This document shows, piece by piece, positions 1,798-60,710 of a DNA stretch of 64,000 nt (the first letter of the stretch is position 1; each line of letters begins with the position of its first letter). The stretch spans positions 62,684,001-62,748,000 of the forward strand of contig NW_024704742.1 of assembly GCF_018977255.1 (NCBI RefSeq), given 5' to 3'. The notes below the pieces were generated by a model. The model did not search any database. It was given only the letters and a program-made list of their open reading frames with translations, and was not told the DNA's origin. Source of the DNA: Callorhinchus milii (lineage: Eukaryota). The position numbers were made by a program, and so were the translations under genes.

Positions 1798-2330
1798 TTA
1801 TCCTTGGGTGAGGGTAGGTAAATGGGGTCTCCTTGGAGCTGAACTGGCTCCAAGGTGACATGCCTGGCATAGAATGTCAGAATCAAGTTAATCTTCTGTG
1901 GTGGTCTTGGTGGTCTGTTTCTTGAGACAAGTCTGGAGTTCTCCAGTGTACTGCTGATAACAGACCAGTCAACCTGGTTCATCTTGGTAGACTGGTGAAT
2001 GGCACCAGGGATTCTTCCCACTTGGCATCACTTAGCTCTGCAAAATCCCTGATGGCTAGGATGGTCCTCACCAGTCAAGTAGTCTGATGGTTATCAAACA
2101 GTGCTAACAATGGCAGTTTTAGCCCAACATACCCATTGGGGGTCCCCAATCTTTGGCTCTTGGTGAGTAAAGATTTTGGGGATAATGTAATTGGGTGCCT
2201 TTTCCAGGGAGGCAGTGTGCACACAATTCCCAGCAAAGTGTTCATGATTAGGTAGTCTACATGTACAGAACTCTCAGTCTGGTTTGGATACTCTTAAGCG
2301 TAATGGATTTCCCAGTTGACAAAAACAAAA
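1798..2330 (+). mobile_element. Unclassified structured retroposon, copy A
   Basis: 1824-1863 is identical over 40 nt to 44223-44262; GGTTTGGATACTCTTAAGC at 2281; A-rich end ACAAAAACAAAA. Confidence 0.8.
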
Positions 2331-2589
2331 GTAGGATCCATTGTTTTTAAAGGAAGAGAAAATAAATCAGAAGGAAAAAAAATGAAAGAAGCTGTGAAGT
2401 TTTGTGAATATCATTTTCATGAACCTTTTCTGAAGAATTTTGATATGAAGCATATGAGATACAAAGGGAGTAAGTACAAGCATAATATATGCTTGTTGGA
2501 AATTCAAATCAATCTCTTCCATTGAGACAAACTTGCATATAACTCAACATTTGTAAAGGAAGTGGAATATCCCAAACAAGATTATTTTG

Positions 2590-2945: not shown

Positions 2946-3957
2946 TTCCAGAAACATCTTAACAACATGATACCACTCATGCAGAAGCATGTCTCTGTGT
3001 GCATTGATGCATCTTTGAGAATGGGATGTGCACACATGAGATGAAGAGGTTTTGAATTAGGTTAAGCTTGAATATTCACTGAGGTTAACATCCTAATATA
3101 GGTTCCTTAATATGCCTCAGCTCCAGGAATTTTGTACAATTCTTGTATGAAGGCTGTGTGGCCAAACCAGGACCACAATGTAGGATCAAAAGCTGTCTCA
3201 ATGGCTGGACTAGGTGACTTTTAGATAAACCTCTTTTAATGAAATCGGGGAGTGGGTGGGGGATTCACTCCAGCTGTTGAGCAGTTGTTGAGCAAATCGT
3301 CACCATTTGTGACAATTGTCGGCGAATTCTCACGTATCACATATTGCATTTTCACCCCTATATCTTTTAACAGTAATCTTCTCTGTGATAGAATTATAGG
3401 CATCCATCTGTCTTTCTCGGCAATGTAATAGTGGACTTGTTAAAATTTCTAGTTGTTTGCACATCTCTATCTTTTTCTGACAGTTATGCATTGGGAATAT
3501 GTCTGCCTCTCCCAACAGTCTATTGTTGAGCACGTGTCAGTTTTAATTTGAGGCCTTTATCTGTCTTCTCTGGCAGTCTTCTAGTGGCTACCTGGTAGTA
3601 TTCCCAGGTGGTGGACTGATGTCTGTCTATACTGGCAGTTTTATATAATTTTTCCCCCTTATCAATAAATAATTCTTGCACTTGATATATGCACCAATAA
3701 CATTGAAACATCTCACAGGTGATTCCTGGATGTGAATGCTGCAACCAATTTGCATACAATAAAAATTTCTCTATAACAGCCATGAAGTAAATGACACCAT
3801 GGGAATCTCCCTTCTCTTGTCAAATAGTACCAGGGTATCTGTAACATCCACCTGAATGACAGATAAGGCCTCAGTTTTTAATGTCTCATCTGACAATGCA
3901 GCCACTTCCCCAGTGTCACAGTGAGGTGCTAGGCTTGACTAAATTTAAATCTACATG

Positions 3958-4779: not shown

Positions 4780-5125
4780 ATTGTATCTTTAAAATTATGG
4801 AGAGGGGGTTCAATAGAGTCGACAGGGAGAAATTATTTCCACTGGTTGGTGAGTCAATGTCTACATTATTTAGAATCATTGACAAAGGAGTAAAGAGGAT
4901 AATTTGGAGTTTTTTTTTACACAGAGGTTTGTTAGGATGTAGAATGCCCTTCTGGTAGTTGAGGCAGGATCCATATTGGCTTTCAAGAGGGAACTAGAGA
5001 GATAATTAAAAATAGTCATTTGCAGAGGTATAGGGAAAAGTTAATGGGACTGAATATATTGCTTTTTCCAGCACACAAACGATTGACCAAATTACCCTAT
5101 TCTGTGCTCTATATTTCTATTGTAT
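4780..5125 (+). mobile_element. CR1 LINE 3' fragment
   Basis: Translates to FKIMERGFNRVDREKLFPLVGES (CR1 ORF2 C-terminus, cf. 27640-27710); ends TTCTGTGCT..ATTTCTAT. Confidence 0.8.
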
Positions 5126-7067: not shown

Positions 7068-7152
7068 ACAGCAATTCGCATTTTAAAGGGGACTTTGATC
7101 TCATCTTATCTGACGACTTAGTTGGTAAATGAAGTGTCAGGTATGACACTTA

Positions 7153-7312
7153 TTTTTTGTTTGCTTTTGTTAGCCACAGATGGAAACTCATCAGCGAGTT
7201 TAAGAATATCCAAACCAGTCTATGAGTTCCACATTTGGATATCACCTACGCATGGAAATGTCCCTTTGTCTGGAATGGCGCATGCACTCTCTCCCCAGAG
7301 GGATGCCCATCT
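7153..7312 (-). mobile_element. Unclassified structured retroposon, copy B (3' part)
   Basis: TTAAGAATATCCAAACCAG matches the reverse complement of the GGTTTGGATACTCTTAA motif; T-rich run 7153-7170 is the A-rich tail. Confidence 0.7.
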
Positions 7313-7339
7313 AAGATAAGATGTTCTTAGACTGGCAGA

Positions 7340-7590
7340 CAAGGCACTGTAATTGATTTGATTGTCTCTGGGACAGAGGAAAGCAGAATAACTCAGAGTT
7401 CCTGTCGCTGAGTTATTCTGCTTTTCGCTACCCCAGAGACATTGAAATGCTATTGAGTGACTGTGCTGCAAAGGTTTTGAGTGAGGACAAACTCAAGCTC
7501 AGTGGTGAGGCTTGCATGGTTACAGATATTCGCTGTCTAGACTCATACATGTAGGATGGCCACATGGGTGAGTCACTGAAGAAGTGCTAG
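7340..7590 (+). mobile_element. Ancient SINE-like repeat containing a long hairpin
   Basis: GAGTGAGGACA and CTGTCTAGACTCATACATGTAGGATGGCCACATGGGTGAG resemble 31440-31850 and 1600-1790. Confidence 0.55.
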
Positions 7591-21245: not shown

Positions 21246-21620
21246 AACAACAACAACAACAACAACAACAAGATTCCATTTATAAAGCGCCTTTCACGTC
21301 AGGAGGACGTCCCAAGGCGCTGCACAGTTGGGTCATGACCCGAGCAGGGGGAAATGGTCAGGGTGAGGGAAGGGAGGGAGCAAGGAGGGGGGAAATGGTC
21401 AGGGTGAGAGGAGGGAAGGGAGGGAGCGAGGAGGGGGAAGAGAGTCGAGAGGGGAGCTGAAGGCACGGTCAAAGAGAAAGGTTTTGAGACCGGCCTTGAA
21501 GGAGGAAAGGGAGGAAGCGGCGAAGGCACTGGGGGATGGAGTTCCAGAGCCTGGGGGCTGAGAGGCTGAAGGCCCGACCACCGATTGTAGGGTGGTTGGG
21601 GCGGGGGACGTGGAGCAGAC
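21246..21620 (-). mobile_element. Young L2 3' fragment
   Basis: Near-identical reverse complement of ~49760-50125, including the duplicated CCCTGACCATTTCCCC unit; (CAA)n tail. Confidence 0.95.
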
Positions 21621-22429
21621 TCTCTGTACAAGACTCTCTGTACAAGACAGACCTGAGAAAAGCCTAATTTGTATAGTAACATTCCACCAAAGTGGAATTT
21701 ATGCAAAATTAAATTTTGAACTTCAGTCACAGAATGGTCAGATGCTATATGCTTTCCAATGTGATATCAGCATTTTTTTTCCAAATGAAAGTGCAGGATT
21801 TCAAATCAACTTGCCTCACCCTTCACTGTTGTCTGGGAGATTCATAATCCCCAATGTTTGAGGAAAGAGCTATGGGCGATGATTAATCAAGCTAGATCTA
21901 TTAAGTCTTTAAATAAGACATCTCAGAGGGGATCTTATAGAGGTGTATAACATTTTAAATTGGATTGAAAAAGTAAATAATAGTTTTGGATGCACCAAGA
22001 TAGTGGAATAAGGGGACATACCCCAGGAAGTATTTTTTTAATCCAGAGCATAATTAATGACTAGGATAAGTGGTTGAGACCAGGACCCTGGACTCATTAA
22101 AAAAAAGCTTGAAGCTGCAATGGGAAGACGATAAGCTATTCTGGAGGGATGAGATCATTTGGGCTGAAGGGCATTCCTCATCCAAATCAATCTTGTGATC
22201 TATTATGTGATCTAAATAGATCCTGAAAGATTTAAATCTAACAAAATGACAAGCGGAAAATCAATATGCAAGATCTTGCCATAAAGGTTTATAGCAGAAG
22301 AATGATTAAAACAAAAGTACAATGAATTTCTCCTATTGATTACAATTATCTACGGTTTGATTTGTTGAATTACTATAGTTAACTCCAGTGAAACTTAATT
22401 TTCCTTTCAGATCATTCAGAACTTTTCAG

Positions 22430-23400: not shown

Positions 23401-23947
23401 TCCATTGAGTCATCACTATGACACTACCATCACATATGGTGATTTTGTGTATATTCTAACGAGTGAAGAAAGGGACACTGTTGTGATAGATTCTTAATAA
23501 TGCATAATAATATCAAGGCAAATTGAATTATTAATATTTTGAAATTAGAATACTCTGACAAAAAGGAAAGTATGATTTGTATGGTACCAACATCTGTCAC
23601 AGTGCCCTAAAATGGCCATTGTTTGGATTATTGGAAAGCAACAATGAACTAACTCTTTCATGCAATTGAGAGAGTTTCATTTGCAACATTGCAAGGTTTC
23701 TAATATCATAAGATCTGCCATGTGCTAACAATGGGAGAGGAGATCAAAGATCTACTGATAATTATTGAGGAATAGGAGCATGGGATAGTGTGGAGCTTTG
23801 GAAGTCCAGCTACCATGTTGCTGAAGTTCATTTAGTTGAAAATTACAGAGTTGTGGCTCTTTTTGCATATTGAACTTCCATGGGTTACATCTGAGTTGCT
23901 CTTTAAGTGCAGTGAGATGATCCCCAGGATTAAAGATGCATGTAAAT

Positions 23948-24148
23948 GCAAAAACAAAAACAGAAGTCGCTGGGAACACTCAGCAGGTCAGGCAGCATCT
24001 ATGGAGAAAGGAAAGTGAGTCAACGTTTTAGATCCACAACCCTTCGTCAGAACTGAGACATGTTGGGAGGGAGAGGCTTTTAAGGGCTAACAGAGAGGGG
24101 AAGGTTGTTTTCAAATTTCCAGCATCTGCAGTGTTTTGTGTTTTTTTT
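23948..24148 (-). mobile_element. Penelope-type short element with inverted arms and minimal hammerhead motif
   Basis: 23948-24056 is the reverse complement of 51140-51240; 24105-24148 (TTTCCAGCATCTGCAG) is the family's 3' end on plus. Confidence 0.7.
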
Positions 24149-25059
24149 CTATGTAAATACAACCTGGCCATGTTCTTCTCATTTGCCTCTTTCAGCTTCC
24201 GAGCTTGGACCCAACCCCCCACTTGTGTCTCAACAGCTCAAGCAAGCAACATTTTTTAGGAGAATGTCAGCCCTGTTCCCCAGGAGAAGGAGAAAGATGA
24301 TGAAGAGAAGGAAGAAGGGGGCAACCCAGGTCAACGATACAGAACAACAAAAACACCAAGGCCCTCCATCCCTCACCTGATATTACAGTCTCCAGAGCAA
24401 GCAATACAACTGCACAGCACTAATCAGATCAGAGGGCAAGGTAACTAATAGGGCAATACTTGATAGGGCACTAATCACAACACAGGTAAGGATGGATGAA
24501 GGAGGTAAGTGTTGCTGCACAGTGAAGCACCTTCAGAAGGAGATATCTTGAGTTGCAGCTGCAGCCTGTTCATGGATGAGGGGAGATGTGAGGTGCTGAG
24601 GTAACTGACCTTCCCTCTCTATCCTGGGAACAAACACCACCAAGGGGCCCCCTCACTTTCACTTTCAAACCAGTAAAGCATGCCCTTAGTCTGGCTGCTG
24701 AGCACACATTGGTTGGGAGCTGGGAAGAGGAAACATATCACACAGAATATTGACAGCATGTACTGTTGTCTTAGTGGAATGAATATTATACATATTTCAT
24801 ATTTAATATTATGCTTTTTTGATACCTAACTGTTGTCCTTGGTGTTTTCGTTGTTCTGTATGTTGACATTTCCTGCACAGATACAACAAAACACTGTGCC
24901 AAAGAGCCAGCATAGACACCATAGGCCTAATGGCCTTCTGTGCTATAAATTTCTACTGTTCATGATACACAGGAAAAATTATGGAATTCTCTATCTACAA
25001 GAAAAACAGGAAAATTCTCCTGGGAGGAAGGTAAGTGGGGTCACCTTGGAGATGAAGTG

Positions 25060-25160
25060 ACATTAGGAAAGTTTGCCAAACAGTGCATAACTTTCAATGG
25101 CAAGTTATGCGGTTTTAGCTGGTTAGATTCCAGTAGTAACCCTAATGAACAGTCTGGGGT
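25060..25160 (+). mobile_element. Unclassified structured retroposon, copy C (internal piece)
   Basis: CAATGGCAAGTTATGCGGTTTTAGCTGGTTAGATTCCAGTAGTA nearly equals 44541-44584. Confidence 0.75.
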
Positions 25161-25776
25161 ATAAAATTAATGCACTTTTTTTTCTCTTAACTCCCCAAAT
25201 TATGACAGGCTTAATAAACTTAATTTATAGTACGGAATTGGTTAGTACAGAATTGCAACCTCTCAAATGTCACTGTCTAATATCCTAGATAGAAGTGTTG
25301 TGGTTATATTTCCACAGATCTCTACCACACCTAATGAATGCAATTCAACAACATGGTATTTATATGGCTCCTGACAATACTATCAGTGATACTGAGTAAA
25401 TGCAACAACCCACATCCACATAAAGATGCTTCACTTTCCATTAAGTTGCATGTTATGTTTTTTAAGATTATTATTTAACAAAACTGTGAGCAAAGACCTA
25501 AAGGATATGAACACAAAACAAGGAGCCATCAAGCATGACTAGAGATTGGAAGAAATGTTCATTCCCACAAAGAACACAAGTGGAACAGTGTCCCATTGAA
25601 ATCAATTGAGAGAAACCAATACTGCTCATTGATACATGACAGGGTAAAGTTCGATTCTCCTACATTTCCCTTCTGAAGTTGTTTAATAAAATACAAGATA
25701 CTTGCTGCATGGAGACAATAGAATAAATAGAATATAACAAATATAACAAATAGGATATAGGAAGTGCAGAAGAGGT

Positions 25777-26856
25777 TTGAAAAAGGAAATAAGAGGGGCT
25801 AAAAGATTAAACCAAAAAAGGTTAGCGGGTAACATTAAAGGGAATTCTAAAATATTTTACAAACATATCAAGAAAAAAAGGCTAGTCAAAGGTAGGGTGG
25901 GGACAATTAAGGACCAAGGGGGAAATCTTATTGTGGAGGCAGAGGGCATGGCTGATGTGCTGAATGAATACTTTGCATCTATTTTCACAAAAGAAATGGA
26001 TGCACCAAATGCCGCAGTATTGGAGGAGAGGGTAGAGGAAATGGATAGGATAAGTATAAACAGAGAGGAAGTACTGAAAAGGTTGACTGCGCTGAAGGTA
26101 GATAAGTCGCCAGGTCCGGACGGGATGCAACCAAGGTTACTATGGGAGGCACGGGTACAAATAGTGGAGGCTTTGGCTACAATTTTTCAATCTTCGTTGG
26201 ACACAGGAGTGGTGCCAGAGGACTGGAGAGTGGCCAATGTGACTCCCCTGTACAAAAAGGGACAGAAGGACAAACCTGGGAACTACAGGCCAGTCAGCCT
26301 AACATCAGTAGTGGGGAAACTCCTGGAGACTATAATCCGGGACAGAATAAATCTTCACTTAGAAGAATATGGGTTAATTAGGGACAGCCAACATGGATTT
26401 GTTAAAGGCAAATCTTGTCCAACTAATCTAATAGAATTTTTTGATGAGGTAACGGAGAGGGTGGATAAAGGTAGTGCAGTTGATGTAGTTTATATGGACT
26501 TTCAAAAGACATTTGACAAAGTGCCACATGAAAGACTTGTAAGAAAGATAGAAGCCCATGGTATAAAAGGGAAAGTGGCAGCATGGATCCAGAACTGGCT
26601 GGGAGACAGAAAGCAGAGAGTTGTGGTGAACGGCTGCTTTTCTGACTGGAGGGAAGTGTACAGTGGCGTCCTCCAGGGATTGGTATTAGGACCACTGCTC
26701 TTCTTAATATACATAAATAATCTGGACTTGGTTATAGCAAGTACCATTTCCAAGTTTGCGGACGACACAAGGTTAGGTAGGGTAGTAAACAGTGAGAAGG
26801 ATAGTAGCCAACTGCAGGAAAACATAGACAGAATGGTAAAATGGGCAGATACATAA
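25777..26856 (+). pseudogene. CR1 ORF2 reverse transcriptase (truncated, premature stop)
   Basis: KSPGPDG, NYRPVSLTS, QHGF, YMDFQKTFDKVPH, SGVLQGLVLGPLLF, KFADDT; stop after KWADT, frameshifts downstream. Confidence 0.95.
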
Positions 26857-27271
26857 CAGATGAATTTCAATGTGGAGAAATACGAGGTAATGCATTTTGG
26901 TAGAAAGAATGAGGGGAGGCAATATAGGCCGGTAATACAATCTTAAGGGGGGTAAAAGAACAGAGAGACCTGAGTGTGCAGGTAAATTAATCCTTAAAGG
27001 TGGCAGGACAGGTAGATAAAGCTGTAAAAAAGGACATATGGGATATTAGGCTTTATAAATAGGGGCATAGAATACAAGAGTCAGGAGGTTATGATTAACC
27101 TATATAAAACACTGGTTAGGCCTCAGTTAGAATACTGTGCCCAGTTCTGGGCACCACACTATAGGAAGCATGTTAAGGCATTGGAAAGGGTGCAGAGGAG
27201 ATTCACGAGGATGGTACCAGGAATAAGGGACCTTGATTATGATGAAAGGCTGGAGAGGTTGGGATTATTCT

Positions 27272-27594
27272 TGTGGAGTCCTTTAGCTCAGTGGTTAGAG
27301 CACTCGCTTTGCAAGCGAGAGACCTGCGTTCAATTCCAGGCAGAGCGAAACCTTGGGCAAGTTTCCTTACTCTACACGCCTAATAATAATCCCTCCAAAA
27401 CCAAAAACAATAATAACTTGGTCACTTTCAATCTACAACTATTTGTGGGACATTGCTGTGCGCAATTCGCTGCCGCGTTCGCCCACAAATATAAAGTCAA
27501 TTCACTTTACAGTGTGTTCTGTGAAGCGCTTTGGGACGTCCTCCTGACGTGAAAAGCGCTGTATCAAATGCAAGGATTATTATTATTATTATTA
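27272..27594 (+). mobile_element. tRNA-derived SINE, short form, nested in CR1
   Basis: Highly similar to 5374-5696; TATTCT duplicated at 27266-27271 and 27595-27600; CR1 frame resumes FSLEQRRL. Confidence 0.95.
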
Positions 27595-30039: not shown

Positions 30040-30580
30040 TAGTTGAGAGTACTAAGAGCATTGTGCACAGTTCTGGTTGCTGCAGTACAAAAAGGATATC
30101 GGAGAAATCGAGAAGATACAGATGAAGGCAACCAAAAATGATTGAGAGAATGGAAGGACTGGATCATGAGGAGCGACTAAGTAAATTGGGCATGTTCATG
30201 CTGGAAAGGAGAAGATTGAGAGGCAACATGTTTGTTGTCTTTAAGATTCTAAAGGGGATAGACAATATAGATCATAACGGGCTGTTTCAACTTGTCCAGA
30301 ATAGTAAAACCAGAGGATACAGCCTGCGATTGAAGGGGGATATATTCAGAACAAATTTACTCAAACACTATTTCAGTGAGCGAATAGTGAACCTATGGAG
30401 ACGGTTGAAACAGGATGTGTGATTCTTTTAAACACAGATTAGATAGTTTTCTTTTAGGAAATAACATTATGGGATATCGTAAATAGGTAGTTTGGGATAT
30501 ATGTGCATGCGACCACCAGGAAGGTGGAAGGTGAACTAGATGGACTTTGGTCATTTTTCGTCTTAGCATTTCTTATGTTG
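30040..30580 (+). mobile_element. CR1 3' fragment, second family
   Basis: ORF GLDHEERLSKLGMFMLERRRLRGNM...TRGYSLRL; 3' UTR GGTGGAAGGTGAACTAGATGGAC shared with 60443-60710 and ~13300-13380. Confidence 0.85.
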
Positions 30581-31850: not shown

Positions 31851-32056
31851 ATATGAATTTGTATTCTGAATTGTGACAATCTTCTATATTTCATGTTTTA
31901 ACTCTACCCTGTCAAAATTTTCAGTAAATTCTGCTTACAGTTTTCCAGTAGTGTAAACATTCATCATTTGTAGGACATCATTTAAAATGTTACCCATGAA
32001 TATGGTGCTTCTACAGCTAGGACTGCCCTTCCCATTAGGGCTTTGACTCAACAGCA

Positions 32057-32381
32057 TTAATAATAATAATAATAATCCTTGCATTTAATATAGCACTTTT
32101 CACGTCGGGAGGACGTCCCAAAGCGCTTCACGGAACACACTGTAAAGTGAATTGACTGTATATTTGTGGGCGAACGCGGCAGCCAATTGCGCACAACAAT
32201 GTCCCACAGTCGTAGATTGAAAATGACCAATTTATTATTGTTTTTGGTTTTGGAGGGATTATTATTATGCATGTGGAGTAAGGAAACTTGTCCAAGGTTT
32301 CGCCCTGACCTGCCTGGAATTGATCTCAGGTCCCTCACTTGCAAAGCGAGTGCTCTAACCACTGAGCTACAGGACTCCACA
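32057..32381 (-). mobile_element. tRNA-derived SINE, short form
   Basis: Reverse complement of 5374-5696 with (TAA)n tail. Confidence 0.95.
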
Positions 32382-32659
32382 AAGGAGTCATTGAGGACAT
32401 GTCCGCACCTCCAAGTTTCATCAATGAGACAGTCCGACTGATCAGGAATCAACAATACATGACACTATGGCAGACTTGCCTTGGGGCCAGCTGAACCCTG
32501 GATCGACCTCATTTACCTGCTTTCCTTCCTTCCTTCTCTCAAGGATGATAACTTGCGGTATGTCTTAAACTTTTTCAAGAAATCCTGCATAATTCTCAGT
32601 GTGCTAAAGAGTTCAGTATCGAATTTCCTACAGTCTAAGCAACCACTCCAATGCAGTAC

Positions 32660-32823
32660 TACAGGGTCTCCTTGGAACTGAACTGGCTCCAAGGTGACAT
32701 GCTTGGAAACGGAATGTTGGAATCGATCCAGCCCTCTGTGGTGGTTTCAGTCATCTGGATCCTGAGCCACGGGGGTCCACACTATTCCAAGACACTGCTG
32801 ATGACAGCACAGCCAGCCTGGAC
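32660..32823 (+). mobile_element. Unclassified structured retroposon, copy D (5' part), inside a Deu SINE (~32620-33155)
   Basis: GGGTCTCCTTGGAACTGAACTGGCTCCAAGGTGACATGCTTG, collinear with 44224-44380; host SINE reads CAGTACT|...|GATGGTGTGCTGCA around it. Confidence 0.8.
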
Positions 32824-33729
32824 TGATGGTGTGCTGCATTTTCAGAGATCTTGTCCTTTGGAAGAGCTGTGAAACTGAGGTCCCAACTGCCTATTCAGGT
32901 GGTTGTTAAAGATCCCATGGCACTATTCAAAAAGAGAAGGGAATTTATCCCAGTGTCTTGGCCAACAATCTCCTAAATAAAATTGGTCATTCATTTCATA
33001 GGTGTTTGTGGGACATTGCTATGCGCAAATTGGCTGCCACATTCGCCTACAAATACACAGTGAATCATCTTTACAGTCTGTCCTGCAGAGTACTTTGGGA
33101 CGTCCTCCTGACATGAAGGTGTGATATCAAAAGTAAGGATTATTTATCATTATTATTCAATAATTCTAAGAAGCCATTTGCTTATAGAAACATGAGGGTA
33201 GAGACTTTTCATCTTTCTGTAGGAAGATTCTGAATTTTGCTACATCTTTTTCTGGTACCAGATTGGAGATGAATGAAACATTAGAAGAAACCAGTGTCCT
33301 GCCACTCCACTTCATTTGATCTCCAACGCATAGTGTTGCTGTATTGCACGAATGATATTTTAAATTCAATCAACATTATTCTGCATTTAAAGGGTATCTT
33401 TAGGGAAGACTTAACCTTTAGAGATATAGATTGGATCAGACTCACTCTATGTTGATAAGGAAACAAGAGTGGAAATTAAAAACATTGATAAAATGAAATT
33501 ATAATAATAATCCTTGCATTTCATATAAGGTCTTATCATATCTTCGATATTAACAGTAATTCTGTCCAAATTAGACACCCAAAACAGTAAATCCTGTGAA
33601 GTGCTTTGGGATGTCCTCCTGTCGTGAAAGGCAATACACCAAATGTAAGGATTATTTATTATTATTGTTAAAAATTCCATAACCACACATTGCCTGAGGT
33701 GAATTATGCTGAATTATAGGATGTGGGGG

Positions 33730-34228
33730 TTAGTCTCACACAAAACTCATCACCATGCTTAAGACTATCCAAAACAGACTGAGAGTTCCACATATGTATG
33801 TTACCTACACGTGGAAGTTTTCCTATATCTGTAACAGAATGTGCACTCTCTTCCTGGAAGGATACATCCTGCTTACCTAATTGTGGAGAGTATACGGCAC
33901 AGGTTGGCGAGAGTCAAGGATTGGTGTGTGTTAGGGTACTGCTGGAGTTTAACCAGATAATACTGCACAGCTTGCGATTGAAAATCCTATCACATCACTG
34001 CTTGTCCAGCCAGTACTACTTTACCTATTAGGTCTTTGGCTGCAGTGTTAACATGAGCTGAGTGGGAAGAATCCCTGCTCCGTGGCTGGCCTCTCTGTCA
34101 TCAACAGGGCCAAGGAATACTGCAGAACCACCTGGCTCAGGATCAGAGTACTGTGCCTACCACAGATGGTTGATTCGTGTCTGATATTCTGCAGCCAAGC
34201 AAGTCACCTTTCAGCCAGCTCAGCTGAA
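33730..34228 (-). mobile_element. Unclassified structured retroposon, copy E (near full length, diverged)
   Basis: CCATGCTTAAGACTATCCAAA, TGCTTACCTAATT, GTACTGCTGGAGTTTAACCAG, GAGCTGAGTGGG, GTCACCTTTCAGCCAGCTCAGCT are reverse complements of motifs in 44203-44816. Confidence 0.8.
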
Positions 34229-35589
34229 TTATTGTGAGTGTTGTGTTGTGGACCTGATTCCATGAGGATTTGGGCTGAGATTATTCAAACACATTTCGGA
34301 TAAAACGTAACGAGAAGAGCAAATCTCGTAGCTCAGTGATCCGGGCTGGATTCCAGCTCAGACTGTCGAAGTTAAAAGGCAATCTACTTCTGTCCACTGC
34401 ACCTCTGCAGCTATAATTTTCATCCAATCTGACAGCGAGTGGGAGATTCGTGGCATTTCATAATGTATTCAATGTGTTTCTGCACCCCAGCTAATTGACT
34501 TGAAGATCCTTGATCTTATTCAATGCAATCTCCATTTATATAGTACCATTCATGTTGTGAGGACATCTCAAACTGCTTAAAGATGAACATTTTTATCTCC
34601 AAATCCCTCCAGGTACTTGCCTTATTCTATCGCTGCAGTCTTCTCCAGTTCCATTCTCTGCACCCTTTATTTCCTTTGTTCCACAAACTCGAATCTGCTA
34701 AATGTCACTCCAACACCCCACTATTTTTTCCTTATTTTAAAGAGGAATAACTGCTGCATGAGATTTCACCTGCATTGAGATCTTCAGCTCTGATAAGTGC
34801 AACACCAGGAAGACCCAGCAGCAACGACTTATTGTGAGGTTAAAAAAATTACACAAACTTTGAGAGTAAAAATATGTCTTTCAGACATTTTCTGGGCCTC
34901 TGTCGCTGTGGCAGCTTTAACTTATTAATTGTGTGCATTGCTTTAACGATGAAAACAAATTAAAAAATAGTTAACTGGATGGTAGATTCATTAGTTCCAC
35001 ATCATCACAAATCCTATCATTCTGAATAGTCAGACGCAACAGAACATGGCACAGGATGTGAAACAGCAGTTGTTCAGCACACGACTATCCTCAAACCAAA
35101 CAAAATAACAGACTGCAAGCTGGCTAAACAACAACAGCAACTTACATTTGTACAGCACCCTTCACATAAAATAACATCTTGGAGCACTTTACAGTGGCAG
35201 AGACGAATTAGGGGGATGGAAAAGGGAGAAGGGGAGATGACCCTTAGCAAAGTCGATGGTCACCTCCCTCTTCTCACTCCTCCTTCCTTTCTCTTTTTCT
35301 CAGCATCTGGTGGCTCTATCCTTGTGAAGTATTGCGAGATGTTATCTATCTCTAGTGAGCAAGTTATTGTATCTATTATTGAGGTGGAAATTGGAAAGGG
35401 TACTTCAAAGCGTAGTCTTTCTTCAAAAAAATGTTTCAGAATAGATTCATTGTATATTTAGACTTACATATGGCTATAGTATCCAATATAGCATTTTCTC
35501 ATTCAAAAATATAGTCAGTCGGTGCTCATTTTTGATCGTTAGTCTTGACAATTTTAAAGACTTGATCTCAATTGAATGAGAAAATGGCC

Positions 35590-36230: not shown

Positions 36231-37139
36231 TGTCCATTGTGCGTTAATTAATTTCTTTCCCCCTGGAGAATTTAGTAACTCCTCACAGCCTGCTCTTTCA
36301 ATGAGCTTAGAGCTATGGTTCAACAGCAATTCACATTCCTACAGTGCCTTTCAAATAAAAAGAATGACTCAAACAGCATTGCAGAACAAGATTAATGAAA
36401 AATAAAAAGATTGCTGTCATGGAGTCAAACATGGAACCTAATTTACCCCAGCAATTTTGTATAAACTAAGAAATGCATAGCTAATTCATTTTAATTTTTA
36501 TTTGGTAGGGAATTTATTTAAGAGGAGGTGACGGTACTGGGAAGAAAGAATCAAAGTTGAGATGTGTGCTTTTTTCATTTCTACAGTTTAGCACACAAGT
36601 GAGCTATGTGCAATGAATAGACAAGCTAGGACTCTTCAATTTCAAGAAAAGATGTCTTAGAAAGGGATCTTATGGAGGTGCGCAAAATTTTACTTGGGAT
36701 TGAAAACTTAAGATCAGAACAATAAGTTAGGATGCACTAAGAGAGTAGAACAAGGGGACATAAGTTCATTATTACAGATGGTAATTAATAACTGGAACAG
36801 ATTGCCAGGAAGGGTGGTTGAGAAATGTAAGTTATTGATGTGGGAAAAAAGGAACTTCCCAGGGAGTGATACTAGCGAAGGTTTGGTTTACGCCTGTCAA
36901 CTGAAAGGTTTGCAAAGAATGTGGAAACCTTATATTTGGAGAGAAACCTAATTAAAATAGGGAGAAAAAAATGCTTTCTTGAGAAAAACCATGGTAACAA
37001 AGAACTTCATGCTTCAACAGCAGATTATAATTATTAATAAACTTTCCATTTGATATAGTGCCTTTCACGTCAGGACATCTCAAAATGCTCACAGAATTTA
37101 CTGTAAACTGCAGATCAGGTCCAACTGGCAGCCCACAAG

Positions 37140-42600: not shown

Positions 42601-42985
42601 TATCCTCCCTGGGGGTAGGAGTATAGCAAGTAAGTTTAGTCTCCTTGGAGCTGAACTGGCTTCAAAGTGACATGCTTAGCAACAGAATGTCAGAATTGAG
42701 TCAATCCTCGCTGAATTTAAGCATGCAGTTTTAGTTAAACTCCAGCAGTACCCCTATGCACACTCTGGGGTCCTCAAGCCTTAGCTATTGCTAGCCGGCA
42801 TCTGATACTCTCCGGAATTAGGTAAGCAGGATGGGTCACTCCAGGGAGAGAGGGTGCATTCCATTCCAATACACAGGAACTTCCATGTGTAGGTGGGATG
42901 CACGGATGTTTCAGTTTGGTTTAGATACTCTTAAACATGATGATGGGTTTCTGAATGTGTCAGACACACTGATGACCAAAACAAA
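42601..42985 (+). mobile_element. Unclassified structured retroposon, copy F (internal deletion)
   Basis: GTCTCCTTGGAGCTGAACTGGCTTCAAAGTGACATGC, TCCGGAATTAGGTAAGCA, GTGTCAGACAC, end CCAAAACAAA. Confidence 0.82.
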
Positions 42986-44202
42986 TTTGCATTCTATGAA
43001 TTCAAATGCTGACAAAAAGAAAGCGATCTGTTCAGTGATTGTATGAAATGGAAATATACATTTTTACAAAATGGCCCAAGGAGCAAACCATTGTGCTAAA
43101 ATATATGTGTGTGGGTGTGGGGGGGGGGGGGGGGGTGAGCAAGGGATGAAGTCCCACATTCTTTAAGTAAAATGTCAATATATTATAATTAGCACATTGA
43201 ATGTGTCATGAAATGGTACATTTTCACTCCAAACTTCAGTGAAGTACAGCAAACAGAAAACAACAGTTTGTTTATAAAATACACCGTGGCTACACTTTAC
43301 AGTAAATGTTATGAAGTGCTTTGAGATATTGCCTTTCAAGTGTTCTGGGATAGTACCCTTCATGAGGGGTGCATTATAAATGCATTTGTTGTGGTTGACT
43401 TACCGGCATGAAAGGCCCTGTTATCAAATGCAAATGCAAACTCAAGCTATATAGTGTGAAAAGAAAATGATTAAGGACTTATTTGAAAATATTGGGGTCA
43501 TGTTTGCGATGTTTTAAAACATTATTTGTGTTACTTTGCCCTGCGCAATTGGCTGCTGTGTTTTGCTCATAAAATATACAGTCAATTCACTTTACAATAT
43601 ATTCTGTGAAGCGCTTTGAGATGTCTAGAAGATGTGATGAGGAGCTATATCAAGTGCAAGGATTATTATTATTATTACTTTACTCCAACATATACAGTCA
43701 TTGGATGTCAATGTTCCCCTCACACCAAGTAGGAATGTTCTTCTTCAGACCAGATGGCCTCTATCTTTGATATTCCTGAAGTAGGCGTCCCTCCAATTGT
43801 AAGTTGCAGGCTTTAGAGTGGATTTCAAGTTTTTCTTAATATTCATATTTATTTTCCAGGATTGATCTGCTGAGGAGGGGTGAAAAACGCTTCTTTCCCC
43901 ACCTAGTCAAAATATAACGTTGTAACCGAGAGTCATAGAGCTCTATGACCATGAAAGCTATAAATGTTTTTTTTGGTCCTGTTCAAAACAACAATAACAA
44001 TTTTACATTTGTATAGTGTCACGTAAGGAGGATGTGTGAAAGTGCTTCACAGGATTTACTATGAAGTTTAATTTTTTTAGGCAAATGTGGTAGCCAATTT
44101 GCACAAAGCAATGTCCCACAAACAGCCATGAAGTAAATGGACAATTTTATTTTGGAATTGTTGGCCAGGGCACCAAGAGAAACTCCCTTCTCCCTTCACA
44201 TC

Positions 44203-44816
44203 CTTCTTGGGAGGAGGACAGCGGGGTCTCCTTGGAGCTGAACTGGCTCCAAGGTGACATGCTTGACAATACAATGTTGGAATTGAGCCAGCCCTCCGTG
44301 TCAGTCTCAAAAGTCCGGTTTCTGAGCCAGGCGGGACCGCAGTATTCCAGGGTATTGCTGATGACAGCACAGACAGCCTGGCTCATCGGCAGGACCTGGA
44401 AGGGCAAACCAGTGATTGTAGGGCAGACCAGTCACTGGAGTCACCCCACTCAGCTCCTGTTAATCCTGCAAACCAAATCCCTAACAGGTAGGGTGGTCCC
44501 AGCTGGATAAGCATTGGGAAAGCTTGCCGGATAACAATATCAATGGCAAGCTATGCGGTTTTAGCTGGTTAGACTCCAGCAGTACTTCAACGCACACTCT
44601 CGGGCGCCCAAGCCTTGGCTTTTGCCAACCTTCCACTAATACCTTCCGGAATTAGGTAAGCAAGAGGCGTCCCTCCAGGGAAAGTGTGCGCATTCCAACA
44701 ATCATCTCTGGAATTTCCATGTGCAGGTGGGATGAGTAGAAAGCTTGGTTTGGATACTCTTAAGCATGGGATGGGTTTCCGCATGTGTCAGACACTCGGC
44801 TGGCCAAAAATAAAAA
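44203..44816 (+). mobile_element. Unclassified structured retroposon, copy G (most complete), 12-bp TSD
   Basis: TCCCTTCACATC at 44191-44202 and 44817-44828; tail AAAAATAAAAA; several internal stems. Confidence 0.88.
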
Positions 44817-45589
44817 TCCCTTCACATCAAGGCTAAATTCAACATTGTGTTACAAAATTCTGCCCATGATGCATCAGCAATTATAGTTTCAATGCACAAA
44901 ACAGCGCAAAATAACAACATAAAATTCAATTACCTATCACCTCTGTTCAGCCATTATTAAGCCAAAAAATGAATCAACATCTGAATCAACTGGACTCAGG
45001 GACTTCTGCATTTGCATTGAAATCAATTTAAATCAACCCAACAAAATCAAGCTAAATATTTAATTGAGGATTGCCAATACCATAATTCTCTCAAATTGAA
45101 ATTGAATTTTTTGTCATGTTCATTTATAACTGCCCAAATTTCATCTTTGCACATGAGATATTATACAACTACAACTTGGATTTATATAGCTCCCTCCACG
45201 CCAGACGGCTTCTCAGAGCGCTTAAATTATAGGCAGAATAAAATTCTGGTTTGATGAACAAGACATACTGTTAATGTTATCTGTTGCCATACATACACTG
45301 TGTTACATTTGAATACAAGAGCCCTGTGCTGCAATGAAGACAGCAAAGGCAGCATACTGGCAAACAGCACTGTGCTCTCATTCCTTTAAGTGATGCGCAG
45401 ATCTGGGCTCAGCTGCACTGATACACATTCACCAACAGTGCCACCTGTCTATTTATTAACTAGACAGTCTGTTGTTTGAATTAAATGCCCAGAAATCGTA
45501 CAGAATATTAAGCCAAATACTGATTTAAAAAAACAGAGATATGCTTTTCTGCTTAATTATACCCCCTATGAGATGGATATATTTGATAA

Positions 45590-46949: not shown

Positions 46950-47345
46950 CCTGATGTGGATTGAGGGATGACCTGATCGAGGTCTTTAAATATATGAGGG
47001 ATTTTGATAGAGTCAATAGGAAGAAATTATTTCCACTGTTCAGTGACTGAGGGCAGTAAATGAGTTGGTTAGTAAACAAGCAAATGGAGAGAGTAGGAGA
47101 ATACTTTTCACATACAGAATTGTTAGGATATGGAATGCCCTGCTGGGAGTACTAGTTGAAACAAAATCCATATTAGCCTTCAAGAGAGGTTGAGACAGAT
47201 ACCTTAAAAACGATCAGCTATAAGGGTATGGAAAAGAGCAGGTAAATGGGACTGAAAGGATTGCTCTAGAGGGATCTGCAACATGATCACAGACATGATG
47301 GACCGAATGACCTTCTTCTGTACTGTAAATCTCTATGGTTTTATG
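46950..47345 (+). mobile_element. CR1 3' fragment
   Basis: GATGACCTGATCGAGGTCTTTAAA (DLIEVFK), GATGGACCGAATGACCTTC, TCTATGGTTTTATGG tail. Confidence 0.82.
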
Positions 47346-48182
47346 GTCACGATGGAGGCAGAGTTCAGAAATGGTCTGGGAATTGTTCTCTTGAAACTTA
47401 TAACACATTATAAGACTGTCTTTATGTCCTGCTGTCATATATGATCATTCATCCCAGGTGACTTTTGATGGTGACTGCTGCACAAAAGTATATCAAGAGA
47501 ATATTTAAATTGCAAATTAACACATTATTTCCCTGGGTATAAAATGAGAAGGTCTGAGGTACTGCTGCTTAGTATGGCCCAGAATTTCTCAAGTTCTTAG
47601 CTTTAAGCCTTTTGCCTTGAAATATAAGTTCATGTAGATTTTTGGAAAATTCTTAAATTCCACATTCCTGAACTTCAGAGCACTCTGGTGTGAAACATCA
47701 CAGAAATTGGAGCACAGAAGGAAGTCATTCAGCAAATGCTGGTGCCAAGTCTATCATAGTGATGCTGTGAAGCTGACATTCCCGAACTGATTATTTGAAC
47801 AGAAGCTTGACAGGAATCAAATCCTACTGAAGGAAACAGTGGGCATCTAGCACGCATGCCGAACCATCCAGGAGTTCAGATAAAACATTGTACAGCTAGC
47901 AATATGCTATCGATACCACTCCTGTGCAAGTACTGTGAGAGATATTTTTAAAAAAGCATCTTTATATTCAACACTGATGACTTGTGAAGCACAGCACTAA
48001 CAGCTCGGTTTGCATGCCAGACGGTCTGAGGCAGCCTCTTGCCTGATGAAGCTGTTACTCCATTTGACAACTATAAGAGCTCCCATAGAAACCATGAATA
48101 CTAAAGTCATTCGAGCATGTTCTTTGTTTTGAAACTGGCAAAAGAAATATGAGATCCTCTGAGAACATGGGCGGCCACTTAT

Positions 48183-49646
48183 GTGAAACATGAGTTAACG
48201 GCAACACATTCAATTAGGTTAACCTTCAACCTTCACTGCGAGGAGATGCTGGATTTCCTTGAATCCAAGATCAAGGGAATCCGCTCCGCGGTAACTTCCC
48301 CTCCAACTTCCACCCACCACCCACCCCTTCCCTCCCACACTCCGACTCCTACCCATCCTCCCCTACACACCTTCGTACCCGTTTCCCCACCCTCTGTCAC
48401 TGAACTCATCCTATCCCTAAAACCAACCACCTGCTCCCTTGACCCCATCCCCACTCCACTCCTTATCTCCCAGCTCCACTTTCTTGCCCCACATATCACT
48501 GACATCATCAACCTGTCCCTCTCCTCTGGCTCTGTCCCCATTCCATTAAAAACTGCCATCATCACGCCCACCCTGAAAAAACCCTCCCTTGATGCGTCGC
48601 AGCTATCAAGCTACCGGCCCATCTCCAACCTCCCCTTTCTCTCCAAGGTCTTGGAAAGAGTTGTCGCCTCCCAACTGCGCTCTTTCCTTTCCACCCATTC
48701 TCTTTTTGAACCCCTTCAGTCAGGTTTCCGTGCTGCTCATAGCACAGAAACTGCCCTGGTCAAGGTCACCAATGATATCCTGACCATCTGTGACCAGGGC
48801 TCCCTCTGTCTCCTCGTCCTCCTCGACCTATCGGCAGCATTCGATACGGTCGACCACGCTATCCTACTCCACCGCTTGTCCTCCCACCTCAACCTTCAAG
48901 GCACTGTCCTTGAATGGTTTAGGTCGTACCTTTCTCACCGTCTTCACTTTGTCTCGACGAATGGCTTCTCCTCCACCCCCCGCACTGTCTCATGTGGTGT
49001 CCCTCAGGGCTCTGTCCTCGGTCCCCTCCTCTTCACCCTCTATATGCTCCCCCTCGGTGACATCATCCGCAGACATGGAGTTAACTTCCACATGTATGCG
49101 GATGACACCCAACTCTACCTTTCCTCCTCTACTCTCAACTCCACGACCACCGATGTCCTGACAGCCTGCCTGTCCGACATCGAGTCCTGGACGAGAGACA
49201 ACTTTCTTCAGCTCAACGTGCGAAAAACCGAGGCCCTCCTGATTGGCTCACGTCAGCGCCTCCGCACCTCAGGCGCTGACACCATCAGCATCCAAGGCTG
49301 CACTCTCCACCTCTCAAAGCCAGTCAGGAACCTCGGCGTTTTGTTCGACCCTGAGCTGTCCTTTCTCCCTCACATCCGCACCACAACTGGCACCGCCTTC
49401 CATCACCTCCGGAACATCGCCAGACTACGGCACTACCTCACCCCTCACGCTGCTGAAACCCTGGTCCACGCCTTTGTCACCTCAAGGCTGGACTATGGGA
49501 ACTCTCTCCTCGCCGGCCTTCCCGTACCTCCCTCCACAAGCTGCAGGTCATTCAGAACTCTGCAGCTCGTGTACTGTCCCGCACCAGGACCACATCACTC
49601 CCACCCTCGCTCGCCTCCACTGGCTCCCCATCCCCCAGAGGATTGA
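48183..49646 (+). pseudogene. L2 ORF2 reverse transcriptase domain (no endonuclease; frameshift near 49525)
   Basis: [70 protein letters not shown]. The first ~14 codons are flanking DNA. Confidence 0.96.
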
Positions 49647-50125
49647 TTTCAAGATCCTCATCCTCACCTACAAGGCCATTCACGGCCTTGCTCCCTCCTA
49701 CCTCTCCAACCTACTATCCCCCTACCTACCTGCCCGTACCCTCCGTTCCTCTGGCTCCGGTCTGCTCCACGTCCCCCGCCCCAACCGCCCTACCATCGGT
49801 GGTCGGGCCTTCAGCCTCTCAGCCCCCAGGCTCTGGAACTCCATCCCCCAGTGCCTTCGCCGCTTCCTCCCTTTCCTCCTTCAAGGCCGGTCTCAAAACC
49901 TTTCTCTTTGACCGTGCCTTCAGCTCCCCTCTCGACTCTCTTCCCCTCCTCGCTCCCTCCCTTCCCTCCCCTCACCCTGACCATTTCCCCCCTCCTTGCT
50001 CCCTCCCTTCCCTCACCCTGACCATTTCCCCCCTGCTCGGGTCATGACCCAACTGTACAGCGCCTTGGGACGTCCTCCTGACGTGAAAGGCGCTTTATAA
50101 ATGGAATCTTGTTGTTGTTGTTGTT
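48224..50125 (+). mobile_element. Young 5'-truncated L2 LINE
   Basis: RT ORF plus C-rich 3' UTR, terminal stem GCGCCTT..AAGGCGC, (TTG)n tail; GTTAAC at 48218-48223 and 50123-50128. Confidence 0.97.
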
Positions 50126-51121: not shown

Positions 51122-51276
51122 ACCCTTCGTTAGACGAAAGGTTCTGACAAAAGGTTATCGACCTGAAACATCAACTCACTTTCCTCTCTCCATAGATTTT
51201 GCCTGATCTGTTGAGTGGTCCCAGTGATGTCTGTTTTTATTTCAGATTTCCAGCATCTGCAGTATTTTGACTTTTG
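51122..51276 (+). mobile_element. Penelope-type short element with minimal hammerhead motif
   Basis: GGTT-CTGACAA-A-AGGT(TATCG)ACCT-GAAA-CA-TC-AACT at 51140-51176, preceded by inverted fragment ACCCTTCGTTAGA; ends TTTCCAGCATCTGCAG. Confidence 0.72.
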
Positions 51277-59285: not shown

Positions 59286-59675
59286 GAACCATAGAAATTT
59301 ACAGCAGAGAAGAAAGTCATGCAACTTATTATGTCTATGATGGCTCTTTGAAAGAGCATTCCATTTAATTCCATTTCCCTGCCTTTTCGTATACCTCTAC
59401 AGATTATTCTTTTTTTTAGATATCTATCTAGTTGCTCTTCAATACTAAAATGGATCCTGACTCGACCAGGGCAGAAGGGATTTCACATTCTAACAACTCT
59501 CTCAGAACAAAATCTCTCAATCTTCCCCTTTGCTCCCTTGCTATCTATCTTAAATTGATATCCTACAGTTTCAGACTCCCTAATTCGATAAGGAGATAAT
59601 TTCTCCCTATCGAATTTAAAAACCCTCATAATTTTAAAGACCACTAACAGATCTCCTCTCAACCATTTCTGTTCC
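59286..59675 (-). mobile_element. CR1 3' fragment
   Basis: Minus ORF LRGDLLVVFKIMRVF..DREKL; tail AGAACCATAGAA. Confidence 0.8.
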
Positions 59676-60442: not shown

Positions 60443-60710
60443 AATTTGCTAGGCGAAAGAAGACAAAGGTCCATCTAGTTCGCCTTCCACCATCCTGGCA
60501 GTTGCTTGACATGTCGTGCCCCAAACTATACATTGTATTCCGAGATATTATTGTCTGGCAGAAATCTATCTAATTTGTTTTTCAAACAAAGAACACTTTC
60601 TGCTTCGACTATCTCCCTAGACAGCCTGTTCCATAAGTTTACTACTTTCGCACTGAAATAGTGTTTCTGCAGATATATTCTGAATTTATCCCCTTTCAAC
60701 CGCATACTCA
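60443..60710 (-). mobile_element. CR1 3' fragment, second family
   Basis: Minus ORF RLKGDKFR...HYFSAKVVNLWNRL; UTR homologous to 30500-30580. Confidence 0.82.

Follow-up and report, generated by a model that had tools for sequence, protein, structure and literature searches.

The analysed window, by which we mean the whole 64-kb stretch of DNA, is repeat-rich animal DNA that carries tRNA-Ala-headed SINEs and relics of the L2 and CR1 LINEs. It also contains eight copies of a repeat of about 600 bp, which together occupy 2,721 bases, or 4.3% of the window (Table 1). Seven of these copies had been listed in a first-pass annotation of the sequence. All seven were recovered by blastn and nhmmer searches of the window and align with one another on the strands given there, but the descriptions of three required correction. 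The copy that had been placed at 25060 starts near 25014, retains a 5' end and has a large internal deletion. The copy at 42601 contains an internal deletion that had been missed, and the copy at 7153 reaches approximately 7342, beyond the 7312 first reported. The eighth copy is more diverged and lies on the minus strand in two pieces (∼32520-32400 and 32058-31995). A young tRNA SINE separates the two pieces, and the family must therefore predate that SINE insertion.

The copies share 56-79% pairwise identity over common stretches of more than 100 bases, and one short pair is 48% identical over 64 bases. The 7148 copy was found with nhmmer only by a profile that included this copy itself, and blastn joins it to the 33730 copy with an E value of 8e-15. 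The 5' end is retained in four of the eight copies. Differences between copies fall in shared blocks, which suggests multiple source lineages and not a single host gene. The repeat family is old, dispersed and real.

Table 1. Family copies in the window and features of the 44200 copy. Copies are named in the text by their first position, except for the copy at 31995, which is called the eighth copy.
Feature	Position	Strand	Remark
Best-preserved full-length copy	44200..44816	+	5' end at 44200 (common AT(C/T)CT) or 44203
Diverged near-full-length copy with A-rich end	1800..2332	+	62.5% identity to the 44200 copy; TSD undetectable
3'-end fragment with A-rich tail	7148..7342	-	
5'-end-bearing copy with large internal deletion, without 3' end	25014..25142	+	
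Fragment of the 5' part, adjoining an older SINE	32660..32823	+	
5'-truncated copy, candidate 10-bp TSD, without A-tail	33730..34228	-	
Copy with both ends, internal deletion of ∼250 bp	42602..42988	+	highest score for the BovB tail motif
Eighth copy	31995..32520	-	interrupted by the young tRNA SINE at ∼32058-32382
Left TSD	44191..44202	+	last 3 bases probably also the first bases of the element
5'-terminal hairpin, pyrimidine run paired with G-run	44201..44218	+	prediction only
13-bp hairpin	44226..44258	+	most conserved module
Short TGCTG/CAGCA hairpin	44356..44369	+	read from the sequence; kept in part in other copies
19-bp tandem duplication	44401..44438	+	private to the 44200 copy
AGCTTGCC/GGCAAGCT stem	44521..44552	+	variable loop; largely retained in the 25014 copy
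Internal TTTT	44559..44562	+	candidate Pol III stop; kept in 4/5 copies spanning the site
3' stem-loop, conserved	44751..44781	+	92% of cells paired, 5 copies
3' end similar to the tail motif of BovB/RTE	44771..44802	+	post hoc; clear only in the 44200 and 42602 copies
A-rich tail	44806..44816	+	
Right TSD	44817..44828	+	

Other repeats in the window

Two L2 3' ends in opposite orientation (21255-21620 and 49760-50125) match at 98.4% identity across 367 bases, which points to recent activity of L2. The second goes with a 497-aa RT frame at 48153-49643. A CR1 ORF2 relic with a 369-aa RT frame spans 25747-27593, and a young tRNA SINE (27271-27593) breaks its 3' end region. Old repeats that by eye resemble decayed CR1-type 3' ends of differing lineages are located at 4786-5123, 46983-47339, 59384-59640 and 30325-30568, and further ones at 60447-60704, 21867-22020 and 36601-36762. 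A pair of 120-base repeats (23934-24053 and 51141-51258) is 80% identical and stands outside the main families of the window. Just upstream of the 7148 copy, a near-perfect palindrome of ∼79 bases (7363-7441; predicted -48.5 kcal/mol) resembles a MITE or foldback insertion, and it was not a repeat in the self-comparison of the window. On the minus strand, 3523-3819 gives a weak Pfam match to zf-C17orf113 (E 0.0027, below the cut-off), which we take to be possibly a decayed DNA-transposon relic.

Ends of the element

The 44200 copy is flanked on both sides by an exact TCCCTTCACATC, which does not occur elsewhere in the window. Among 3,000 random pairs of flanks, only two shared at least 12 bases. 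The 12-bp target-site duplication (TSD) described earlier for this copy is exact and unique in the window, but a clear TSD is observed in only one of the three copies that have both ends, and its last three bases probably belong to the element. In all four copies with a 5' end (starts at 44200, 1800, 42602 and 25014), AT(C/T)CT directly precedes a G-run, and the last three bases of the TSD are for this reason probably the first bases of the element. The likely start of the element is thus 44200, which puts its first three bases inside the TSD. No TSD was detected for the 1800 and 42602 copies, whose longest exact shared runs are 4 and 5 bases, respectively; divergence could account for both cases. 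The 33730 copy, which is devoid of an A-tail, is bordered by a 10-base repeat (33708-33717 and 34223-34232) of a kind found by chance in 13 of 3,000 pairs.

The A-rich tail reported for the 44200 copy is present, and the 3' end is A-rich in four of the five copies that retain it. In an empty-site comparison, the SINE fragment that lies left of the 44200 copy does not resume on its right, a result that neither corroborates the TSD nor places one insertion before the other. As the first-pass annotation had stated, terminal inverted repeats and LTR ends are absent: no inverted repeat connects the two ends of the 44200 copy, and the copy does not have TG...CA ends.

Copies beyond the window

Contigs of four public runs from three organisms were placed on positions 44185-44860 at 80% likeness, yielding 29,121 (X1), 5,711 (X5), 14,826 (X6) and 11,571 (X13) contigs. 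The same majority letters are observed across the runs at the 40 listed places of 151, and depth falls away steeply beyond either end of the element. Loose 5' ends before 44220 (316 contigs of X1 and 180 of X6) run into unlike flanks (agreement 0.43 and 0.42, respectively). Loose 3' ends behind 44810 (298 contigs of X1) and 44814 (33 contigs of X5) are A-rich and likewise dissimilar (0.38). The pooled sequence upstream of the 5' ends is T-rich, at a weak agreement of 0.43. The best-supported loose ends indicate one common 5' end at the G-run and an A-rich 3' end. Among 24 of the 3,224 loose ends and 15 of the 1,776 joints, no longer, RT-coding version of the element was found; the entries represent internal deletions or places peculiar to the 44200 copy. 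Summed contig depth was not taken as copy number. The contig counts, combined with the density of the family in the window, suggest that it has many thousands of copies.

Motifs of the element gave no match in viral contigs. Scans of metagenome contigs also gave none at first and later a single match to the 5' hairpin motif (L001, 2679-2698). This match was rejected as chance, given that only the 20 searched bases are common and the surroundings are unrelated.

Stems, folding and conserved modules

In all four copies with a 5' end, the beginning of the element is predicted to form a terminal hairpin, although the sequences differ. The adjacent 13-bp hairpin sits in a 40-base exact run that is common to the 44200 and 1800 copies. 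The probability of such a run between two copies that are 62.5% identical is about 1e-6, which points to constraint on the source elements. The 13-bp hairpin is nearly invariant among copies and for that reason provides no covariation. All four stems that had been described in the 44200 copy are present there, but the third, CCAGTGATTG/CAGTCACTGG, comes from the private 19-bp duplication and is absent from the other window copies; read depth drops about 20- to 40-fold at the duplication. The AGCTTGCC/GGCAAGCT stem recurs in large part, with a different loop, in the 25014 copy, in agreement with the earlier description.

The 3' stem-loop contains one change on both sides. When two 3' helices were tested for covariation across five copies, 227 of 500 shuffles reached the observed score, and the covariation that the first-pass annotation had proposed to look for thus does not exceed that of shuffles. 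The 44200 copy has a folding z of -4.6 and its antisense strand one of -3.9. Comparison repeats in the window reach -5.2 (tRNA SINEs) and -4.0 (L2 tail), which makes the folding of the 44200 copy unremarkable. The label 'hairpin-rich' is consequently not upheld, as one stem is private and the z value is matched by the antisense strand, tRNA SINEs and L2 tail. Selection on an RNA structure is plausible.

A splice-donor-like AGGTAAG at 44654-44660 recurs at the corresponding sites of the 42602 and 33730 copies. The 25014 copy has another motif resembling a splice donor close to its 5' end.

Coding capacity, promoter and ribozyme searches

The frames of the element, including a 138-aa open frame across its 5' half, have no Pfam match, consistent with the earlier statement that it has no coherent ORF. 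The Rfam search that had been suggested matched no family at gathering and E-value thresholds and returned only weak matches to miRNA, lncRNA, CRISPR and archaeal entries. In two copies, no Rfam match to 7SL, 5S, U1/U2 or snoRNA was obtained up to an E value of 10. Neither the tRNA nor the Rfam searches found a tRNA in the element, and a profile of the SINE heads of the window does not match it. A pair of A and B boxes, with one mismatch allowed in each, is present in one of seven 5' parts of the element, in 88-110 of 1,000 shuffles and in six of seven control SINE heads of the window. A tRNA head built on the loosely A/B-like strings was accordingly rejected as being at chance level (∼10% of shuffles), and the annotated absence of clear A/B boxes is confirmed. 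The element is also unlike the SINE and L2 repeats of the window and, as noted previously, lacks the L2 or CR1 tails of the common SINEs. The conserved internal TTTT weighs against a Pol III transcript.

An HDV-like ribozyme was considered and rejected, since the descriptor, which decayed copies could escape, gave matches in 3 of 8 copy-strands, at sites that do not correspond, and also in 4 of 40 shuffles. No hammerhead core, as expected of a Penelope-like element or a retrozyme, was found on either strand of 11 fragments, and the hammerhead also had no Rfam match.

Comparison with RTE LINEs

The likeness of the last 35 bases of the element to RTE tails was noticed first and tested afterwards, and the scores given here are therefore post hoc. 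The 30-base BovB tail motif printed in the supplement of PMC5786205 was scored on 6,396 sequence windows on both strands. The highest score belongs to the 42602 copy, at its 3' end and on the right strand, and that of the 44200 copy ranks within the top 0.23%. The remaining three of the five 3' ends show no match to the motif (scores of 9-11, at or below background). At its BovB-like 3' end, the 42602 copy folds into two tandem hairpins. A second RTE tail motif gave no match. Three short published RTE 5'-UTR motifs have no family-wide match; the two matches obtained are confined to the 44200 copy and lie in or beside its private duplication. Six motifs of the element are absent from two supplementary text files of PMC7245038.

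According to the account of RTE-clade LINEs in PMC6007223, their TSDs are 7-15 bp long, mostly 10-12 bp, and a T-stretch about ten bases ahead of the TSD marks their insertions. The 44200 insertion, the single clear case, has a TSD of 12 (or 9+3) bp with T as its first base, within the RTE range, but lacks the upstream T-stretch.

The RTE and R4 relics that had been reported in the window were not recovered, nor was an autonomous partner with the ends of the family found there. In a Pfam scan of 209 of the 269 stop-to-stop segments of at least 62 aa, RT matches belong only to L2 or CR1, and tblastn with the L2 and CR1 proteins of the window found no RTE or R4 relic, although short or frameshifted relics could escape both scans. 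In PMC5381603, L2, CR1 and SINEs are given as the elements that prevail in the elephant shark.

Origin of the family

A TSD, an A-rich tail and copies with shared ends constitute the anatomy left by target-primed reverse transcription. The exact TSD, the A-rich 3' ends in four of five copies, the shared contig ends and the absence of terminal inverted repeats or LTRs all argue for a non-autonomous, non-coding retroposon made in this manner, and retroposition as such, which the first-pass annotation had also proposed, is very probable.

The partner is less certain. Our preferred reading, to which we assign a probability of roughly 0.45, is that the ∼600-bp element stems from the terminal UTRs of an AP-endonuclease LINE that makes TSDs, with an RTE (BovB-like) LINE as its partner. 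In favour of this reading are the TSD length, the BovB-like tail of two copies, the 3' stem-loop retained in five copies, the rarity of A+B box pairs in the 5' parts and the published bipartite RTE elements. Against it are the three unmatched 3' ends, the missing T-stretch, the clear TSD in only one of three copies with both ends and the lack of RTE relics in the Pfam and tblastn scans of the window. Internally deleted 'bipartite' elements often arise from RTE LINEs. In the survey of PMC5786205, internally deleted LINE derivatives of this type are ascribed only to the RTE, Ingi, Vingi and R2 clades. Internal deletion of a LINE would leave its 5' UTR and its 3' recognition end, and the 5' part of the element would correspond to the 5' UTR and serve as a promoter for its own transcription. 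The LINE protein would bind the 3' stem-loops in trans, nick the target and prime on the A-rich end, with staggered nicks producing the 9-12-bp duplication. Several source lineages would have been active long ago, and their copies would now be decaying.

The same kind of element may instead have been moved by a different TSD-making LINE (Vingi-like, Nimb/I, RTEX or L1/Tx1), through a common tail or the A-rich end alone, in which case the likeness to BovB is due to chance. This option is unlikely but deserves the most weight among the alternatives: the tail is rich in A but no clear microsatellite, the BovB motif fails in three of five copies, and Vingi, as presented in PMC5786205, likewise yields bipartite elements. 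However, the 5' ribozyme motif of Vingi is unmatched at the 5' end of any copy, and the pooled upstream sequence is T-rich at its weak agreement of 0.43, whereas A-rich sequence is expected of L1 targets.

A true SINE, composed of a much decayed or unrecognised Pol III head, a long body and a LINE tail, is also unlikely. Such an element would fit the retention of 5' ends in four of eight copies and hundreds of contigs, the position of the best-conserved module at the 5' end, as in SINE heads, and the loosely A/B-box-like strings at 44235 and 44280, ∼45 bases apart. Heads of obscure origin upstream of RTE parts are on record in the sections of PMC5786205 and PMC7245038 that describe such elements. 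The searches of the 5' part nevertheless returned no match to tRNA, 5S, 7SL, snRNA or the SINE-head profile of the window; the paired boxes occur at the frequency seen in shuffles, the B-like string differs among copies and the internal TTTT is conserved. The length of 600 bp is, moreover, long for a SINE.

Rather improbable is an undescribed SINE-like family of cartilaginous fishes in which the 5' double hairpin constitutes a new kind of head, attached to an RTE tail that has diverged, with selection maintaining the element across source lineages. Such a head would be a promoter or a self-processing RNA unrelated to tRNA, 5S, 7SL, snRNA and known ribozymes.

Bulk retroposition of processed copies of a structured non-coding RNA of the host is very unlikely. 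The conserved stems and modules and the z value of -4.6 for the best copy would agree with this origin. In opposition, no Rfam family is matched, the folding signal lacks strand specificity, ordinary SINEs equal it, covariation is not above that of shuffles, and the block-wise differences suggest more than one source. The weak, post hoc likeness of the 3' end to the BovB/RTE tail also speaks for derivation from a LINE and not from a host RNA. Finally, a non-autonomous DNA transposon, solo LTR or Penelope terminal repeat with an A-run by chance could accommodate two internally deleted copies and the undetectable TSD of most copies, but it is highly improbable in view of the missing end-joining inverted repeat, TG...CA ends and hammerhead core, the A-rich 3' end in many contigs and a TSD at the 44200 copy that is longer than usual for LTR elements.

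If the family is RTE-derived, as in our preferred reading, it would represent a third large retroposon system beside the L2- and CR1-linked ones in a slowly evolving cartilaginous-fish genome, and it would improve repeat masking and offer insertion markers for cartilaginous fishes. If the conserved 5' hairpin does not come from a LINE UTR, it would define a new type of SINE head. The family has so far no bearing on host gene function.

Comparison with known systems

No description of the family was found in the literature searched, a scope that lies outside Repbase Reports and most subscription journals. A repeat of this abundance that is new to that literature may already be catalogued in a repeat library; PMC1845163 mentions ten deposited elephant-shark repeats, one of them unidentified.

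The described SINEs of the elephant shark, the CmiSINEs (SINE2-1_CM and SINE2-1B_CM) and SacSINE1-CM, combine tRNA heads, CORE/Deu bodies and an L2 tail in the account of PMC5499810, with which the SINE content of the window agrees. The element resembles them in being a high-copy, old and non-autonomous retroposon but displays no similarity to the SINEs or L2 repeats of the window in blastn and nhmmer searches. The Vingi and Ingi derivatives (Vingi-1_EE derivatives and RIME) are, like the element, bipartite, non-coding and TSD-making. The ribozyme-like 5' sequence given for Vingi-2_Gav has no match in the element.

In length and modular build, the element is similar to a group of SINEs covered in PMC5786205 and PMC7245038, namely WALLSI1/1A (610 bp for WALLSI1A in PMC5786205), bird SINEs with GC-rich heads, platypus snoRTE and hagfish SINE1-1_EBu. 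As in SINEs that place a head of obscure origin on RTE parts, a possible RTE tail lies below an unassigned 5' part. The element differs from this group in that neither a snoRNA, rRNA or 7SL head nor an RTE 5'-UTR segment was found in it.

Bipartite RTE elements measure 262-470 bp in PMC5786205, where Bov-A, RTE-N1_Lch, RTE-N2_Lch, RTE1-N1b_LA, RTESINE2 and WALLSI3 are included. The element is longer than most of these, ends in an A-rich tail instead of (CAA)n and has neither a family-wide match to RTE 5'-UTR motifs nor a ribozyme. Like them, it is non-coding and a few hundred bases in length. The element also has in common with the Bov-A type a retained 5' end, the absence of a small-RNA head, a TSD in the RTE range and, in two of five copies, a BovB-like 3' end.
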